From Phormidesmis sp. (GTDB lineage: Bacteria > Cyanobacteriota > Cyanobacteriia > Leptolyngbyales > Leptolyngbyaceae): DNA of 64,000 nt. Shown in pieces: positions 22,019-30,590 of the stretch (within the stretch, counting starts at the first letter, position 1; each line of letters begins with the position of its first letter). The DNA lies in contig CBDFJR010000002.1 of NCBI GenBank assembly GCA_965248535.1, positions 2,144,001 to 2,208,000 of the forward strand, given 5' to 3'. Below the pieces are notes generated by a model. The model had not been told where the DNA came from. It worked only from the letters and a program-made list of their open reading frames with translations, and made no database searches. The position numbers and the translations under genes are program-made.

Positions 22019-22867
22019 CTAAGCAATGTTAGCGTTCGGGGATTCTGAAAATCCGCCTAGGTCGTTATCTCGGTTTAACCAACCCACCAAAAAAACCTCC
22101 TGACTGGGGTTAGTGTCTACTCGTTGATTGCGATAATCGATGCGACCCTGGACAATTTTTTGAGCCGTTTGAGCCGTGTTATTCGCCAAAAGCGCGGTTT
22201 GAGTGCCGGGGCCAAAAATGCCATCGGCGCTGATGCCCAATGCTTCTTGAAGAAACTCGATCGCGCCTCCCACCCCAAAGTTAACCGCCGTATCGAAATG
22301 CACGATCGCTAACGGCAACACCATCAGCGCCGCTTGTGAGGGCTGCCAATACATTGAGAAATAGATATCGTGGACTTCGACATCGGTAATCAACTCTACC
22401 CCTTGAGTGGGTAATTGATTGTTGATGCGATAAGTGTTGTAGGTATCTTGGGTCACGCCCTTGTTAGTTGCCCCACCGGGATCATCGGGATTGTTCACAT
22501 AGCCGCCTTCCCACAGCAAGGTAAATTTAAGGGCAGTCGTGAGGGCATCAGGAGTGGGCTGTTTTTTGGCTTCTAGGGTCGGGGTTGTCAGCATCACAGG
22601 CGGACGCATCTCGATCAGCTTGCGGGCAAAGGTGGCTCCAAACACGCCCGTGCTGGAGTTGTTGAGGTGAACGGCTTTGCAGAAACGATCGAGGGCATCC
22701 TTGGTGGCTGCGCCAAATACGCCATCGATGGCGGTGCTGATGTCGGTTCCTTGCATAAACCCGATCGCGCTCAGACGAGTTTGCAGATCGGTGATGAGTT
22801 CTTTATCGCTGGTCAGTTTAGCGAGATTGACAACGGCATTGTGTTCGACTAAATCTTTTAGATGCAT
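22019..22867 (-). CDS. glycoside hydrolase family 108 muramidase with peptidoglycan-binding domains
   Basis: EGGYVNNPDDPGGATNKGVT, HFDTAVNFG, LQEALGISADGIFGPGT, FLVGWLNR; N-terminal PG-binding LQTRL...IDGVFGAAT. Confidence 0.88.
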   Translation of the reverse strand: MHLKDLVEHNAVVNLAKLTSDKELITDLQTRLSAIGFMQGTDISTAIDGVFGAATKDALDRFCKAVHLNNSSTGVFGATFARKLIEMRPPVMLTTPTLEAKKQPTPDALTTALKFTLLWEGGYVNNPDDPGGATNKGVTQDTYNTYRINNQLPTQGVELITDVEVHDIYFSMYWQPSQAALMVLPLAIVHFDTAVNFGVGGAIEFLQEALGISADGIFGPGTQTALLANNTAQTAQKIVQGRIDYRNQRVDTNPSQEVFLVGWLNRDNDLGGFSESPNANIA

Positions 22868-24936: not shown

Positions 24937-24962
24937 TACAACAAGGCGGAATCTCGGCAACC

Positions 24963-24990
24963 GTAGGGTAGGCATCTTGCCTGCTCGTAG
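24963..24990. repeat. GTAG-initiated REP-like hairpin / possible terminator
   Basis: GTAGGGTAGGCATCTTGCCTGCTC stem-loop downstream of the ChaB gene. Confidence 0.45.
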
Positions 24991-25241
24991 TCGAGAAGAC
25001 AGTGCATGTGAGGATAACTAGATTTACGCCACAGGCTCCTAGATTGATGGTTCATAAGTTACTTTCTAGCTCGTCTAACAAAAACATAAGCGTCATCGAA
25101 TAATTAGGTGTGTTGTGTATTCGTTACGGCATACCTATTTTTTTGTGAGTTGACAGGCAAGGTTAGAATAAAGCATTCCCTCACCAAGCAACGCCTAGTT
25201 GCTCTGATGGATATCACTATCAGTTTCAGAAGGAGGATAGC

Positions 25242-25502
25242 GTGACAACCTCTGCACTCAATTGGACTCCCGAACCGCAGCTTTTGCAACAGCTAACGGA
25301 TTTAGCGCAAAAGAGGGGACTCTCCCTTAACGTGTTGATGACAGAAGCGATCGTGGAATATCTAAATGCTCAAAAGTCCCCCGAATCAGTTCCTGAGAGT
25401 GATCCGCTAATCGGTTTATTTTCCGGCTCACCTGAGCTTGCAACGCAATCAGAAGCAATTTTGCAGCAGCAGATTACGCAGTCAGGTTGGACATGGAAGT
25501 AG
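25242..25502 (+). CDS. putative antitoxin (RHH/CopG-like)
   Basis: LLQQLTDLAQKRGLSLNVLMTEAIVEYL; DPLIGLFSG; overlaps the downstream PIN gene. Confidence 0.7.
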   Translation: MTTSALNWTPEPQLLQQLTDLAQKRGLSLNVLMTEAIVEYLNAQKSPESVPESDPLIGLFSGSPELATQSEAILQQQITQSGWTWK

Positions 25503-25906
25503 CGATCGCTGACACAGGCTTTGTGGTTGCCCTGCTGAGTCAGACTGATGATAGACATACTGATGTGGTTCCCATCTACACTCAGCAATCTTCGATTCTG
25601 CTGCCCCAAACCGTTTTGGCTGAAGTTGCCTATTTAGTTGGAAGGGACTCTGGTATTAAGACAGTAGCTGCCTTTCTGCGAGGGCTGAATGTGAGCCGAT
25701 TTTGTTTGACAGCGTTGGTTGAGACAGATGTTGATCGAGTTGCTGATATTTTGCAAACCTACGCTGATAGCCGAATTGACTTTGTAGATGCTAGCGTAAT
25801 GGCGATCGCCGAGCGTTATGGAAGTACCAAAGTTCTCACCCTCGACCAGCGAGATTTTCGCTTGTTTCAACCCAATCACTGTGATAGTTTTGAGATTCTG
25901 CCATAG
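25493..25906 (+). CDS. vapC: PIN domain (VapC) toxin
   Basis: AIADTGFVVAL, VLAEVAY, IDFVDASVMAIAER, VLTLDQRDF. Confidence 0.85.
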   Translation: MEVAIADTGFVVALLSQTDDRHTDVVPIYTQQSSILLPQTVLAEVAYLVGRDSGIKTVAAFLRGLNVSRFCLTALVETDVDRVADILQTYADSRIDFVDASVMAIAERYGSTKVLTLDQRDFRLFQPNHCDSFEILP

Positions 25907-26128
25907 TAGAGCCATATTCAAGCACCTTCTGCGCACTCCTCTTGACTGAATTCGCTGATGGCGGTTCTGAAGGTACCGTTGTCGTTACGGACTGCGAAGT
26001 AGGAGTTAAAATAGAGCGGTGTAGACTTTGATTGCGTGAACCACCCACTACTTTTTCTTTGTTAGAAGACGAATAAATTAAATAACTTATACAACCGAGA
26101 AGACTTGCAAAATTAATTAGGTTTCAAG

Positions 26129-26800
26129 ATGGTTCGTCTTTCTGAAATAGCTGGGGTCATATTAAAACGCTGTCAACAAGTGGATGCAGAATCAAAGGCG
26201 GTTTTGGAAACTCTTATGGTTAGATGCAATACTCTTGTTGAATTACTATCTGAGTTAGTGGAAATAGAGGCTCCCGAATTAAGGGATTTACTGGAACCTG
26301 TCATAGATGAGATATTTGTTGATCTTAATCTGACTCTCACTTTAGCAATGGGAGAACAGTTTAAAGCAAGCCTAGTTCTTGCAAGAACATGTTTCGAGAG
26401 TTCCCTCTATATTTTATTTTTTATTGATCATCCTGTCGAGGCGAGGATGTGGGCCAATTCACAGAAAGACATGTCGTTTTCTTCTACCTTGGAAGAATTA
26501 ACAAGACCATCTTATATTAAAGCTGCTTGCAGATCAGAAAAAATAGATGTCGAGAGACTAAAATCAATATATGTAGATCTTGCGAGGGCATACCGAGAAT
26601 TTAGTGAAAGAGTTCATGGAAAATATAGTTTTTTGCAGACAGTAAAGACAACCCAAGAAAGCGGAAAAGATATACTTAAATCTTTCTCTAATCTATTGAA
26701 TGATGCAATTAAAAGTATTATAAATTTGGCAATCATTCGTCTAAATCGTATTGATTTTATTGAAGAAAAACTACCCAGTCTTGGCAACTACTATGACTAA
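26129..26800 (+). CDS. HEPN-like helical protein (putative nuclease effector)
   Basis: LARTCFESSLY and YREFSERVHG (R-x6-H) pattern in a predicted all-helical protein; AT-rich. Confidence 0.55.
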   Translation: MVRLSEIAGVILKRCQQVDAESKAVLETLMVRCNTLVELLSELVEIEAPELRDLLEPVIDEIFVDLNLTLTLAMGEQFKASLVLARTCFESSLYILFFIDHPVEARMWANSQKDMSFSSTLEELTRPSYIKAACRSEKIDVERLKSIYVDLARAYREFSERVHGKYSFLQTVKTTQESGKDILKSFSNLLNDAIKSIINLAIIRLNRIDFIEEKLPSLGNYYD

Positions 26801-28544
26801 TCAAGAGTCTCAATTAGACATTATTCGTGCAGAAGAGTTCACGAAGGAAGAATTTCTTGAATGTTTTTCGGAAACTTCTCGTGAAAGGGATATCATTGAA
26901 AAAATAAAGGGGCCAGGTGCACACCTTTTAGAAGGGCCTAGAGGTGTAGGTAAATCCAGCCTGATGAGAAAAGCGGAACTCGAATTAGATGAGGCATTTC
27001 AAAGAACTCGTTCTATTGGAGTCTATGTAAACTTTAAAGCCTCTCTCAGAGTCCAGACTGATCACTCAGGACTTGACTTTGATCCATTCTTATGTTGGGT
27101 TGCAGCGAAAGTCTTAGACGCTTTGTATAAGAAATGCAGGCAACTTGGCTCAATACAATCAAACCTAATAACAGAAAAATATCGTCGTTTATTAGCAGTA
27201 GATCAGTCTTGGAACCCAGCCTATTTAGAACGGACAATTCAGGATTTGCAGAGTTTAGCAATAGCATCTACAGATGAAGCAAAACGTAAAATTGAAAACC
27301 GTCTTCTAAGCACTGATTTAGAGCGATTTGCTAATGTAGAATCCGTAGCAGAATTCATTCTTGAGATAGCAAGAGACACATCTCTATCACGTATCATATT
27401 TCTTTTTGACGAAGCTGCTCACACATTTGATGAGCAGCAGCAAAAAATATTCTTTGGCTTCTTCAAACTACTACATGGAAGTATCATTTCAGTTAAGGCA
27501 GCTACTTACCCTGGTATTACTTCCTACGGCGGCAATTTTGAGATCGGTCAAGATGCTGTCCGTCTTAGTATAAATTCGGTTGATGAGCATTTACAATCCA
27601 GCCGTGATGAGCTTCGGAAGCACTTTAGAGATTTGTTAAGAAAGCGCATCCCAAGCTCAGACTTCAAAAAAATGACTCAAAGTGGAGAAGCTTTAGATTT
27701 ATTAATCTGGTTAAGCTATGGCAATCCTAGAGCTTTTCTGCAAGTAATTTCTAAGTGGCTCTCCAATGATAGGCTCTCAAAACAAAATGCACTCATAGCT
27801 TCAAACAACTATGTTGCAAACGAGCTAACTGCTTACCATCTAGGTTTGAAAGAAAGACTGCCCCGATTTTCTTCTCATATCGATCTGGGGATGACACTTA
27901 TAAAAGGGCATCTCGTTCCAGAGATACAAAGAAAAAATGAAGGTAAGGGAGACGATCCGAGAGTTCAAACCATTTACTTCACAATGGAATCGTTAATTCC
28001 TTATAAAGTGCAGCGTGCACTCTCTCTTTTGGAATACTCTGGATTTTTATCTCAGAAAGGTGTGGTCAAAATTAGAGGGCGAAGACAGGCCCCAAGGTAT
28101 GCTTTGAATCTAGGAGTTGCAGCAAGTGAAAAAGTTTTTCATAGTGCCTTTAGTGTAAATCCAGATGAGGCTATAAAAAGGCTAAACATTACTGACTATA
28201 GAGAGTTTTATACTAGCGATCCTCGCTTCCAGTCTCTTGCTGATAGTTATCAGGAGCTAGAAACTTGTCCTAATAAACATCCTCGACAAACTGAGGGTCT
28301 TTTCTGTCCTATTTGTGGGGCAAAATTTGAAGTTAATAGAGTGATTGAAAGGCTTTTAGAAGATTCTATAGATAGAGTAAGCATTACGTCGTTTCTAAAA
28401 CGTAAACTCAAGGATGATTTGAAGATCCAGACTGTTCGTGATGTGCTCGCATTCACCGAATCTGAATTACAGCAGGCACCTCTAATCGGTCCAAAAAGAT
28501 CTCGTACAATAGTGAATGCCGCAGAAGAATATATATCTGGATAA
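26793..28544 (+). CDS. P-loop ATPase (STAND/ORC-CDC6-like) with C-terminal Zn ribbon and HhH/alpha-CTD-like domain
   Basis: Walker A EGPRGVGKS, Walker B IIFLFDE, GNPR; CPNKH...CPICG; SIDRVSI...IQTVRDVLAFTESELQQAPLIGPKRSRTI; ATG at 26793 overlaps the upstream stop. Confidence 0.75.
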   Translation: MTNQESQLDIIRAEEFTKEEFLECFSETSRERDIIEKIKGPGAHLLEGPRGVGKSSLMRKAELELDEAFQRTRSIGVYVNFKASLRVQTDHSGLDFDPFLCWVAAKVLDALYKKCRQLGSIQSNLITEKYRRLLAVDQSWNPAYLERTIQDLQSLAIASTDEAKRKIENRLLSTDLERFANVESVAEFILEIARDTSLSRIIFLFDEAAHTFDEQQQKIFFGFFKLLHGSIISVKAATYPGITSYGGNFEIGQDAVRLSINSVDEHLQSSRDELRKHFRDLLRKRIPSSDFKKMTQSGEALDLLIWLSYGNPRAFLQVISKWLSNDRLSKQNALIASNNYVANELTAYHLGLKERLPRFSSHIDLGMTLIKGHLVPEIQRKNEGKGDDPRVQTIYFTMESLIPYKVQRALSLLEYSGFLSQKGVVKIRGRRQAPRYALNLGVAASEKVFHSAFSVNPDEAIKRLNITDYREFYTSDPRFQSLADSYQELETCPNKHPRQTEGLFCPICGAKFEVNRVIERLLEDSIDRVSITSFLKRKLKDDLKIQTVRDVLAFTESELQQAPLIGPKRSRTIVNAAEEYISG

Positions 28545-28560
28545 CTCACAAATCTTTGAT

Positions 28561-28593
28561 GTAGGTGAATCGGCGCAATTGCGATCCACCCAC
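28561..28593. repeat. imperfect GTAG-initiated palindrome / possible bidirectional terminator
   Basis: GTAGGTGAATCGGCGCAATTGCGATCCACCCAC between convergent genes. Confidence 0.4.
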
Positions 28594-28622
28594 TTTCAAC
28601 AATTCTGGCATCACGCCCGCAA

Positions 28623-29795
28623 TTACAGCTTGATCACGACTTTGATGCAGTCTTCTTTCTTATGCTTAAAGGTCTCGTAGGCCTTGGGCGCATCGTCGAT
28701 CGCGATCCGGTGCGTGATAATAAACGAGGGATCAATGTCTCCATTTTGAATGTGCTTCATCAAAGGGTCAAGATACCGATGGACGTGAGTTTGACCCATC
28801 TTCAGCGTTAGCCCTTTGCTAAAAGCAGCCCCAAACGGAATCTTATCTAAGATGCCTCCATATACTCCTGGGATTGAAACCGTGCCACCTTTGCCGCAGG
28901 CAACCAGGGCTTGTCTGAGGGCAGTCGGACGATCGGTTTCTAAACGAACGGCTTGCATGGCTTTGTCATAGAGAAAATCGGGGCCAGTGCCGTGAGCCTC
29001 CATTCCAACAGCATCAATGCAAGAATCAGGGCCACGGCCGCCAGTCATTTCTTTGAGAGCTTCTCCGGCATCCACTTCTTCGTAGTTGATCACCTCGGTT
29101 GCGCCCGCTTGCTCTTTGGCCATTTTTAGGCGCTCAGGAAAGCGATCGATCGCGATCACCCGTTCGGCTCCCAGCAAGAAGGCACTGCGAATAGCAAACT
29201 GTCCTACGGGGCCGCATCCCCAGATTGCAACCGTGTCTCCGGGTTTGATATTGCAGTTTTCTGCTGCCATGTAGCCCGTGGGAAAAATATCCGACAGAAA
29301 CAATACCTGATCGTCAGTCAACCCTTGCGGAACTTTGTATAAACCCACATCGGCAAAAGGAACGCGGGCATATTCTGCCTGACCGCCCGCATAACCGCCA
29401 AAAATGTGAGAATAGCCAAACAATCCAGCGGCTGAGTGACCATATAACGCTTCTGCCATAAATGCATTGGGGTTAGAGTTATCGCAGAGTGACCACTGAG
29501 CCGTTTTGCAGCTATAACAGTTTCCACATGAGATCGTGAATGGCACGACCACACGATCGCCAATGCTGAGATTTTTGACACCCGCACCGAGTTCGACAAT
29601 TTCGCCCATAAACTCGTGTCCTAAAATGTCGCCTGACTCCATGCTGGGAATGAATCCGTCATAAAGGTGCAGATCAGAGCCACAGATCGCGGTCGAGGTG
29701 ATTTTAACGATCGCATCACGAGGGTTGAGAATTTTGGGATCAGGAACGGTTTCTACTCGAACATCTTTTGCGCCGCGCCAGCAAACTGCCTTCAT
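28623..29795 (-). CDS. zinc-dependent alcohol dehydrogenase (formaldehyde dehydrogenase-like)
   Basis: [40 protein letters not shown]. Confidence 0.92.
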
Positions 29796-29882
29796 CTGAG
29801 GGTGCTCCTAAATAAATAAAATGAGTTGGGTTATGGTCGATCGAGAGCGACTAGTGGAATATGATTGCTTCAGCGATTGAAG

Positions 29883-30590
29883 CTATTGACCTCGCGATTG
29901 CCCTTCGGTGGTGGCGATTTCGCCTGTCTCCATCAGTTGCTTAAAGCGCCGCAGTTCATCCCCGATTTGCTGTTCGGGTTCTTTGCCAAAGAGCTTGGCG
30001 ATCGCGGCCGTCAACATTCCCCCTGGCACGTTATATTCCATCACGACTTTGACTTCGGTGCCCCGATCGCCAGGAGCAGGTTGAAATCGAACAAAGCCGG
30101 AGTTATCGACTTCTGCGCCTTCCTCAGATGCCCAAGCAATTAGCTGATTAGGCTGATCGTTGATAATGTCGGCATCCCACTCGATCGTTTGACCTAGCGG
30201 AGCGTTGGCGACCCAGTGCGATCGCCGCAGATCGATCACTTGCACCGATTTGACGTGTTTCATAAACGTCGGCAGATTTTCAAAGTTATGCCAATAGTTG
30301 TAGAGATCTTCAGCCGATCGATTGATGGTTACAGTCTTCTCAACCTTGATCGCTTTGTTGATACCTGTTGCGTCAGTGACTTTTTCTTGAAGGCTTTTGT
30401 CTGCGGTTGCGCCATGATAGGCAAGACTTCCGCCTGCTATTGCCGTCAGGATTCCTCTCAGCGATCGCTGTTGCAATCCCATTAGCACCATCGCGCTACC
30501 ACCGACGATCGAGGCCCAGCGTTCTTGATCAGAAATGGTGGCATCGCTTTGAGCCTGACTTTGACTCAGCTTGTCTGATTCGACTTCCAT
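29883..30590 (-). CDS. SRPBCC/polyketide cyclase family protein with N-terminal membrane segment
   Basis: VEKTVTINR, LYNYWHNFENLPTFMKH, SHWVANAP, GTEVKV, LRRFKQLMETGEIAT. Confidence 0.88.
   Translation of the reverse strand: MEVESDKLSQSQAQSDATISDQERWASIVGGSAMVLMGLQQRSLRGILTAIAGGSLAYHGATADKSLQEKVTDATGINKAIKVEKTVTINRSAEDLYNYWHNFENLPTFMKHVKSVQVIDLRRSHWVANAPLGQTIEWDADIINDQPNQLIAWASEEGAEVDNSGFVRFQPAPGDRGTEVKVVMEYNVPGGMLTAAIAKLFGKEPEQQIGDELRRFKQLMETGEIATTEGQSRGQ

Follow-up and report, generated by a model that had tools for sequence, protein, structure and literature searches.

A Strictly Linked Gene Pair for a HEPN-Like Protein and an ORC/Cdc6-Type ATPase in Phormidesmis sp.: A Candidate Anti-Phage System

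Introduction

HEPN proteins have been described together with ATPases of the ORC/Cdc6 type in HINPO and in BREX-related systems, which resemble the gene pair reported here. This pair occupies positions 26129 to 28544 of a 64,000-nucleotide (nt) stretch of DNA from the cyanobacterium Phormidesmis sp. (contig CBDFJR010000002.1, positions 2,144,001 to 2,208,000), which was analysed as a whole and is called the window. Gene 1 codes for a small HEPN-like protein, and gene 2, directly downstream, for an ATPase of the ORC/Cdc6-STAND type. In the literature, STAND NTPases figure both as switches and as sensors of nucleic acids (PMC8195603).

HINPO stands for HEPN, inactive NTase-ParA, ORC/CDC6 (bioRxiv 10.64898/2026.10.19.760177). 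In the available portion of that preprint, the ATPase is proposed to sense the DNA of selfish elements and the HEPN protein to be the effector. Like the pair in the window, HINPO has a HEPN gene, not characterised before, upstream of an ORC-CDC6/STAND ATPase. The two differ in gene layout. The inactive NTase-ParA of HINPO stands between the other two genes or is fused to the ORC/CDC6 gene, whereas here the genes abut or overlap, with an estimated gap of -18 to +38 nt in 70 loci. No ParA domain is present in the precomputed Pfam matches of the gene 2 homologues, which are 575-597 amino acids (aa) long.

In BREX-related systems, according to the accessible text, HEPN domains are fused to DUF499/BrxC-like ORC-Cdc6 ATPases. 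These fusions and the Avs-type STAND proteins, as described there, share with the pair a HEPN endoRNase (putative in the case of gene 1), a STAND/ORC-Cdc6 AAA+ ATPase, winged helix-turn-helix domains and an NTPase switch that activates the effector, and BrxC (9zll) is among the fold matches of gene 2. The fusions are, however, parts of multi-gene systems with PglZ or a methylase, whereas the pair consists of two genes, with the presumed effector as a separate protein of 223 aa. A HEPN-MNT type II toxin–antitoxin (TA) system has a minimal nucleotidyltransferase as the partner; here the partner is an AAA+ ATPase, and no third gene is conserved. Two further candidates were rejected on the available parts of their descriptions: SspFGH, whose first gene product SspF carries the Walker A motif and whose SspH is FtsK-like, so that both order and content differ, and HEC-08, a single protein that joins a HEPN domain to zinc-finger-like domains.

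Linkage and Spread of the Pair

Relatives of gene 2 were found at 80 genome loci, 75 of which were informative, with at least 600 nt of upstream sequence. With a narrow profile (E < 0.001), 70 of these 75 loci have a homologue of gene 1 as the next gene upstream, in the same orientation. In the remaining five, this position is taken by an open reading frame (ORF) of comparable size that matches a wide gene 1 profile with E-values from 8e-19 to 2e-56, which brings the count to 75/75. An earlier reading of the window from its letters alone (the sequence-only reading) had proposed a tightly coupled two-gene unit, and this strict co-occurrence supports it. No other family of neighbours is found in more than five loci, and the one reaching five is the divergent group of gene 1 itself. 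Because no third gene is conserved across the loci, the unit is regarded as a two-gene module.

By their record titles, the hosts belong to the Pseudomonadota, Desulfobacterota, Cyanobacteria, Nitrospirota, Verrucomicrobiota, Acidobacteriota, Bacteroidota, Bacillota and Campylobacterota, and further include a metagenome-assembled genome (MAG) of the Chitinispirillaceae and a Methanophagales archaeon. The pair thus reaches about ten bacterial phyla and one archaeon. In the window, the 8-nt overlap between the genes suggests that their translation is coupled. An alternative TTG start of gene 2 at 26751 is possible, yet 25/25 aligned homologues begin at the position of the ATG.

Gene 2, an ATPase with an ORC/Cdc6-Type Core

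The Pfam family PF24389 (ORC-CDC6-like) is matched by gene 2 with 41.4 bits against a cut-off of 27 (E 1e-10). Although this is above the family cut-off, residues 9-225 alone align, covering model positions 4-241 of 571 only, and the family has no described function or partner. At E <= 0.001, 236 proteins of similar length match gene 2; the 120 matches listed align over nearly the full length, and nearly all of them carry PF24389. Source databases (NCBI/UniRef) label several homologues “ORC-CDC6 family AAA ATPase” or “zinc ribbon domain-containing protein”.

The AlphaFold2 (AF2) model of gene 2 (pLDDT 86.2, pTM 0.85) consists of an AAA+ core and a helical lid, followed by the winged helix, the Zn ribbon and a tail of helices. 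With the whole chain, Foldseek returned archaeal Orc1/Cdc6 proteins first (2qby_B, E 3.7e-6; 2v1u_A, E 1.1e-5; 1fnn_A), followed by PAB2304, yeast Orc4 and human ORC subunits, BrxC and CED-4, the top range being E 3.7e-6 to 1e-4. Gene 2 shares with the archaeal and eukaryotic Orc1/Cdc6 initiators the AAA+ base, the lid and the C-terminal winged helix. It differs from them by an identity of only ~12-13%, by the added Zn ribbon and helix-hairpin-helix (HhH) tail, by its obligate small partner gene, and by a patchy spread with horizontal movement. Intact Walker A and B motifs, a lid arginine and the AAA+/lid/winged-helix architecture place it in the ORC/Cdc6-STAND clade. The GNPR motif of the lid is presumably a GxP-type motif with a sensor-2-like arginine, as in other ORC/STAND ATPases. 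An intact P-loop ATPase with a Zn ribbon had been read from the letters, and all the motifs then listed for both genes are present where they had been placed (Table 1).

The Zn ribbon is matched by Zn_Ribbon_1 in 37/71 gene 2 tails and is missing from a distant clade, in which the tail is kept. The HhH tail is the sole C-terminal element found in all clades. A nearly invariant D-Y-R-E-F motif is located between the winged helix and the Zn ribbon (28194-28208).

The tail was studied in an alignment of the last 96 residues of gene 2 from 71 of 72 loci, one row having been dropped for internal stops. Searched against the PDB, the tail profile fits chains of the C-terminal domain of the RNA polymerase (RNAP) alpha subunit (alpha-CTD) best (3gfk_B, E 2.2e-5, and many more), and the HhH domains of NAD-ligase, Rad51 and Hef next. 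At E <= 0.1, RNA_pol_A_CTD (PF03118) is matched by 28/71 tails and HHH_5 by 22/71. The tail of the window itself has no PF03118 match at this threshold and gives only sub-threshold matches to HHH_5 (E 0.019) and POLH-Rev1_HhH (E 0.013). An Atlas search with the tail scored 0.76, as a lead only. The sequence-only reading had seen an alpha-CTD/HhH pattern from SIDRVSIT (28365) to the stop. Judged by these profiles, the resemblance to alpha-CTD is real at the family level and the pattern is that of the generic HhH class, whereas the tail of the window alone reaches sub-threshold HhH matches only.

Gene 2 has the two-hairpin HhH pattern in common with alpha-CTD, but it is no RNAP subunit, and the arginine of the first hairpin is not kept. 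The “VRS” arginine column of alpha-CTD, which we take to be the DNA-contacting residue modified by T4 Alt/ModA, is aligned to F534 in the tail profile alignment. The tail also ends in a family-specific E-[YF]-[IL]-S-G carboxy terminus (28524-28541), invariant or nearly so in the 71 tails of all clades. This conserved free end may be a docking peptide.

Gene 1, a HEPN-Like Protein

HEPN domains are defined, in the accessible part of a 2013 survey (PMC3710099), by a conserved acidic residue in helix 2 and an Rx4-6H motif, and some families keep the histidine without the arginine. The AF2 model of gene 1 is all-helical (pLDDT 87.1), with a helix at residues 78-100, an insert of 40 residues (101-140), a helix at 141-163 and a low-confidence loop at 166-177. 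In this predicted structure, E90 lies on the first of these helices, and R156-x6-H163 ends the second, just before the loop. The motifs of gene 1 thus fit the places that the HEPN definition gives them in the model, though the fold scores are those of helical-bundle noise. R86, E90, Y155 and H163 are invariant across 40/40 family members. In a larger set of 148 representatives, H163 is kept in 147 and E90 in 145, the remaining three having D, while R161 is not conserved.

With Foldseek, the gene 1 model had no match at E <= 0.001. The best-fitting solved chains are HEPN domains (DUF4145-like, HEPN-MNT toxins including 7bxo_F and 7ae6_B, and AF_0298/TT1696-type proteins), all with scores within the noise. 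A sequence profile search of the PDB gave rows at chance level only (best E 0.17). The family differs from the known HEPN superfamily by the lack of a HEPN Pfam match and by the additional invariant R86, four residues before E90. Pfam DUF5677 (PF18928) is matched with 16.4 bits (E 0.01), below its gathering cut-off of 27.1 bits, and by sequence this relation is remote, not membership. Clusters of DUF5677 and DUF6988 turned up in an Atlas search as leads only.

Nineteen close relatives of gene 1 were retrieved by a word-indexed search. A profile built from the 40 diverse members extends the family to 1301 clusters (50% identity) at E <= 0.001, a large and unnamed family. The 150 clusters among the matches listed are 157-347 aa long, nearly all stand-alone and mostly ~220-245 aa. 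On the whole, gene 1 probably belongs to the HEPN superfamily.

Acquisition of the Pair

The pair was found in only one of the 41 related genomes searched, that of the window, and in none of the seven genomes of the same genus (0/7). A DNA-level comparison covered five genomes of the genus. Two of them have an empty site, in which ~151 bp separates the block of the amylase and ChaB-domain genes from the alcohol dehydrogenase gene. The other three have a gap of 1.3-2.1 kb with an HNH-type ORF of 141 aa and a partner of 112 aa, and one of these also holds a Phd-like and a Tpt1-like ORF. The site between the ChaB-domain and alcohol dehydrogenase genes (24937-28623 region) is a small variable hotspot.

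The closest relative in the genome collection is not cyanobacterial; it is found in a Pseudodesulfovibrio MAG, with 58% identity. Relatives on metagenomic contigs reach 82-93% identity. A metagenome scan with alignment returned 36 loci, and one with exact peptides found nothing. DNA homology to the close metagenomic relatives starts at 26058 in one (L099) or at 26128 in another (L094), and ends at 28552. The pair looks horizontally acquired, and recently so.

The base composition had also been noted in the sequence-only reading, which described an AT-rich two-gene unit with an 8-bp overlap. Both coordinates and composition were borne out: the GC content of the island (26050-28582) is the lowest of 615 sliding segments of 2533 nt across the window. 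The HIP1 octamer (GCGATCGC), said to be missing from the unit, occurs at 65 sites in the window and at none within 25810-29997. The gap stands as described, but it is not significant by itself, because only 2.6 sites are expected in 2.5 kb (Poisson P of zero ~0.08).

The 9-mer CCACCCACT has only two copies in the window, at 26041 and 28586, at the edges of the island. Because these sole copies flank it, an insertion is suggested, though it could be chance. They are part of a direct repeat of 12 nt whose copies differ by one mismatch; repeats of this length occur by chance, ten such families being present in 3.8 kb. The flanking repeat could be an insertion scar or a chance occurrence.

Table 1. 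Positions in the window of the two genes, their motifs and domains, and the surrounding island.
Feature	Position	Strand	Description
Gene 1	26129..26800	+	223 aa, all-helical HEPN-like protein, remotely DUF5677-like; presumed effector
Gene 2	26793..28544	+	583 aa from ATG; ORC/Cdc6-STAND-type AAA+ ATPase (PF24389) with winged helix, Zn ribbon and HhH tail
Gene 1/gene 2 overlap, 8 nt, ATGACTAA	26793..26800	+	Start of gene 2 inside the stop region of gene 1
AT-rich island with only the two genes	26050..28582	+	GC 0.380 versus 0.496 in the window; no HIP1 site
Left copy of the 12-nt flanking direct repeat, GAACCACCCACT	26038..26049		Just ahead of the GC drop
Right copy of the 12-nt flanking direct repeat, GATCCACCCACT	28583..28594		Holds the CCACCCACT copy at 28586
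Gene 1, R86-x3-E90 (RTCFE, residues 86-90)	26384..26398	+	On predicted helix 78-100; counterpart of the conserved acidic residue of HEPN helix 2
Gene 1, Y155-R156-x6-H163 (YREFSERVH, residues 155-163)	26591..26617	+	End of predicted helix 141-163, followed by a low-confidence loop
Gene 2, Walker A GPRGVGKS (residues 48-55)	26934..26957	+	G48, G51, G53, K54 and S55 invariant in 25 homologues
Gene 2, Walker B FLFDE (residues 203-207)	27399..27413	+	F203, F205, D206 and E207 invariant in 25 homologues
Gene 2, GNPR (residues 310-313)	27720..27731	+	Lid domain; G310, P312 and R313 invariant in 25 homologues
Gene 2, predicted winged-helix domain (residues ~395-445)	27975..28127	+	AF2 secondary structure; whole-chain Foldseek matches to Orc1/Cdc6 chains that are 366-382 residues long
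Gene 2, Zn ribbon C492-x3-H496...C505-x2-C508 (CPNKH...CPICG, residues 492-509)	28266..28319	+	CxxC...CxxC in most relatives
Gene 2, HhH tail, alpha-CTD-like (residues 517-583)	28341..28541	+	Tail alignment, AF2 model and profile searches

Genomic Company

In 25 of 76 loci, an ORF directly flanking the pair is of the restriction-modification (R-M), TA toxin, other defence or transposase/integrase type, by a manual tally without background control. The other defence-type proteins are SIR2-like, nSTAND3, PD-Lambda-2_B and SspD. In two records the pair comes directly after SspB-SspC-SspD on the same strand: a Snowella MAG (L075:51-6873; SspD E 1.6e-113) and plasmid p2 of Planktothrix agardhii (L093:1-7602). 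Both copies belong to the distant clade without the Zn ribbon. At E <= 1e-8, the copy on the Planktothrix plasmid has no match among the PADLOC models. Downstream of it, plasmid p2 codes for a PbeA-like helicase, an ATP-binding protein, a DUF2779 protein and a PLD-family protein.

The genome of the window has an SspC-like frame ~243 kb away (G000:C2:2413876-2416497, L130), which covers model positions 2-880 of 1104 and has two internal stops. It is probably what is left of a decayed phosphorothioation module, to judge from the frame, and SspD has no match in this genome.

Proposed Function and Alternatives

Strict linkage, domain make-up, recent acquisition and neighbourhood describe the pair as it is observed. 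For its function, we lean towards a module for genetic conflict that was acquired horizontally and is complete with its two genes; most likely it acts against phages or mobile elements by abortive infection. The winged helix, the Zn ribbon and the alpha-CTD-like HhH tail of gene 2 would bind nucleic acid, most likely the DNA of an invader. ATP-dependent assembly of gene 2 would then switch on gene 1 by a presumed contact between the two proteins. R86, E90 and H163 of gene 1 might form a metal-independent RNase site, and cutting of RNA by gene 1 would stop the growth of the infected cell in this putative defence. The pair is a good candidate for an anti-phage system because it is found in many phyla in the company of restriction and toxin genes. 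The proposal of a new anti-phage system in the sequence-only reading is upheld as far as it concerns an acquired two-gene module in the company of R-M, TA and Ssp genes with no named match; the idea of a decoy attached to it is not.

If the pair is protective, it would add a compact two-gene system with an ORC/Cdc6-like sensor and a stand-alone HEPN effector. It would also offer a tractable case for the recruitment to immunity of ORC-like proteins, which normally bind origins, and for the targets that their Zn-ribbon and HhH modules recognise.

Several results weigh against a defence role carried out by a HEPN effector. Gene 2 is present in only 6 of 72,556 plasmid records, tblastn of 50,697 phage records gave no match, and PHROGs has no family for gene 1 or gene 2. 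Many neighbours are housekeeping genes (MetH, QueC, FolB, DnaB, DnaE, GDH, AcrB). PADLOC-DB 2.0.0 returned no significant system, with PDC-M01B (E 0.0024) and mad8 (E 0.004) only. A DUF5677 gene tested in Enterococcus was not among the five protective ORFs, according to the accessible part of that study (PMC12632615). No fused gene 1-gene 2 protein was found among 7999 scored candidates of 472-2000 aa, which is weak evidence. The HEPN assignment itself is also concerned: HEPN-clan Pfam models match neither gene 1 at E <= 1 nor its 40 members at E <= 0.1, while DUF5677 is matched by 14/40 members (E <= 0.1; best E 6.5e-5), below its cut-off. Alignment of gene 1 with 14 DUF4145 domains by hhalign (P 0.0019, probability 14%, 35 columns) is weak and spans only helix 2, the R..LE helix, and an alternative alignment pairing the two histidines is not significant (E 0.64). 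R-x3-E and R-x6-H motifs had been the grounds for calling gene 1 HEPN-like from the letters. The invariant R86, E90 and H163 and the helix layout support this, whereas the fold scores are noise and R156 is kept in only 28/40 members and 116/148 representatives (about 70-78%).

Further database comparisons agree with the earlier view that no named system corresponds to the pair. In NCBIfam 20.0, gene 2 reaches 31.6 bits with the Sll1717-family ATPase (cut-off 75) and 22.3 bits with DS41_1 (cut-off 370), and gene 1 matches nothing. Full-text literature searches returned no paper describing the gene 1-gene 2 pair.

A small toxin-like gene followed by an overlapping, coupled partner resembles a TA operon, and the pair might be a TA-like addiction or stress module, with gene 1 as a HEPN toxin and an ATPase that merely neutralises or regulates it, without phage sensing; the pair would then persist because its loss is harmful. 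It adjoins a PIN TA pair in the window, and HigB, ParE, Zeta, HipA or PIN genes elsewhere; other TA-like genes occupy its insertion site in genomes of the same genus, and HEPN-MNT toxins are among the structural matches of gene 1. We nevertheless find this unlikely: an AAA+ protein of 583 aa with three nucleic-acid-binding modules exceeds the needs of an antitoxin, and two records have the pair within an SspBCD locus, a place where restriction partners are found. Nor do TA and abortive-infection roles exclude each other. The same two loci, together with the R-M methylases that flank the pair in several others, would suit a modification-dependent restriction partner, reading a mark such as the phosphorothioate of SspBCD and attacking unmarked or marked DNA as SspE or SspFGH do. 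According to the accessible part of PMC8092258, 83.9% of sspBCD modules are without a known restriction partner, and the Ssp-linked copies could be such a missing partner of orphan phosphorothioation modules. As an explanation of the pair in general this is rather improbable, as most loci, including the window, have no Ssp genes beside the pair, the genome of the window holds only the interrupted SspC-like frame, both Ssp-linked cases come from the clade without the Zn ribbon, and a HEPN effector points to RNA, not DNA.

A role in the maintenance, replication or transposition of a small mobile element, with gene 2 binding an origin or the element ends and gene 1 as an accessory, is suggested by the fold, which is closest to origin-binding Orc1/Cdc6 proteins with a winged helix, by the two CCACCCACT copies that bracket the island, and by transposases or integrases flanking the pair in seven loci (L020, L037, L043, L051, L059, L073 and L074). 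The ORC/CDC6 clade also includes transposase ATPases, as stated in the accessible part of PMC8195603. We give this little credence, since the pair is not accompanied by any conserved recombinase, transposase or replicase, the loci share two genes only, the homology to close relatives stops where the genes do, repeats of this length occur by chance, and plasmid copies are so few. That the pair is a transcription regulator of the STAND type, with a helical co-factor and without any part in conflict, seems highly improbable. The same source lists sensory switches in transcription among STAND NTPases, and the predicted winged-helix and HhH modules could bind DNA; the spread is patchy, however, the acquisition recent, and no target genes are conserved nearby, while gene 1 has invariant residues of a catalytic type and R-M, TA and Ssp genes are frequent neighbours.

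The decoy of the sequence-only reading, a tail mimicking the RNAP alpha-CTD so that phage proteins binding or modifying alpha-CTD would set off the ATPase and thereby free the HEPN nuclease, has in its favour the best match of the family profile, the PF03118 matches of some tails and the conservation of the tail in all clades. It is not supported, and its chance of being right is very slim: the tail of the window fails to reach PF03118, the similarity extends to other HhH domains (Rad51, ligase, Hef, HHH_5 and Pol lambda fingers), and F534 occupies the arginine column. A wider version seems scarcely more credible. There, the ORC-like ATPase would be an immune receptor with the tail as a guard or decoy of host RNAP, and either phage factors that bind or modify alpha-CTD or AT-rich DNA resembling UP elements would trigger an ATP-dependent assembly licensing the HEPN RNase. 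If true, immunity would be triggered by an attack on the transcription machinery.

Neighbouring Genes in the Window

Pfam places the pair near genes for a ChaB-domain protein, a PIN protein accompanied by a small partner, an alcohol dehydrogenase of the Zn-dependent type and an SRPBCC protein. A small ORF (25242-25502), for which no Pfam family was found, precedes the PIN-domain gene (25487-25906) and overlaps it, and the two are likely a VapBC-type pair, judging from their arrangement. The GC content of this pair (25242-25906) is 0.475 and it contains two HIP1 sites, unlike the adjoining AT-rich island, and for this reason it was probably acquired separately from the island, and earlier. A PIN TA pair between stress genes had been described at this place: the PIN gene and its partner are there, while “stress genes” is a loose term for the ChaB-domain, alcohol dehydrogenase and SRPBCC genes. 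Further upstream, an ORF on the reverse strand (22019-22867) combines a Glyco_hydro_108 domain with two peptidoglycan-binding domains, which is the make-up of a phage-type lysin. This lysin-like ORF is kept beside the amylase gene in genomes of the same genus.

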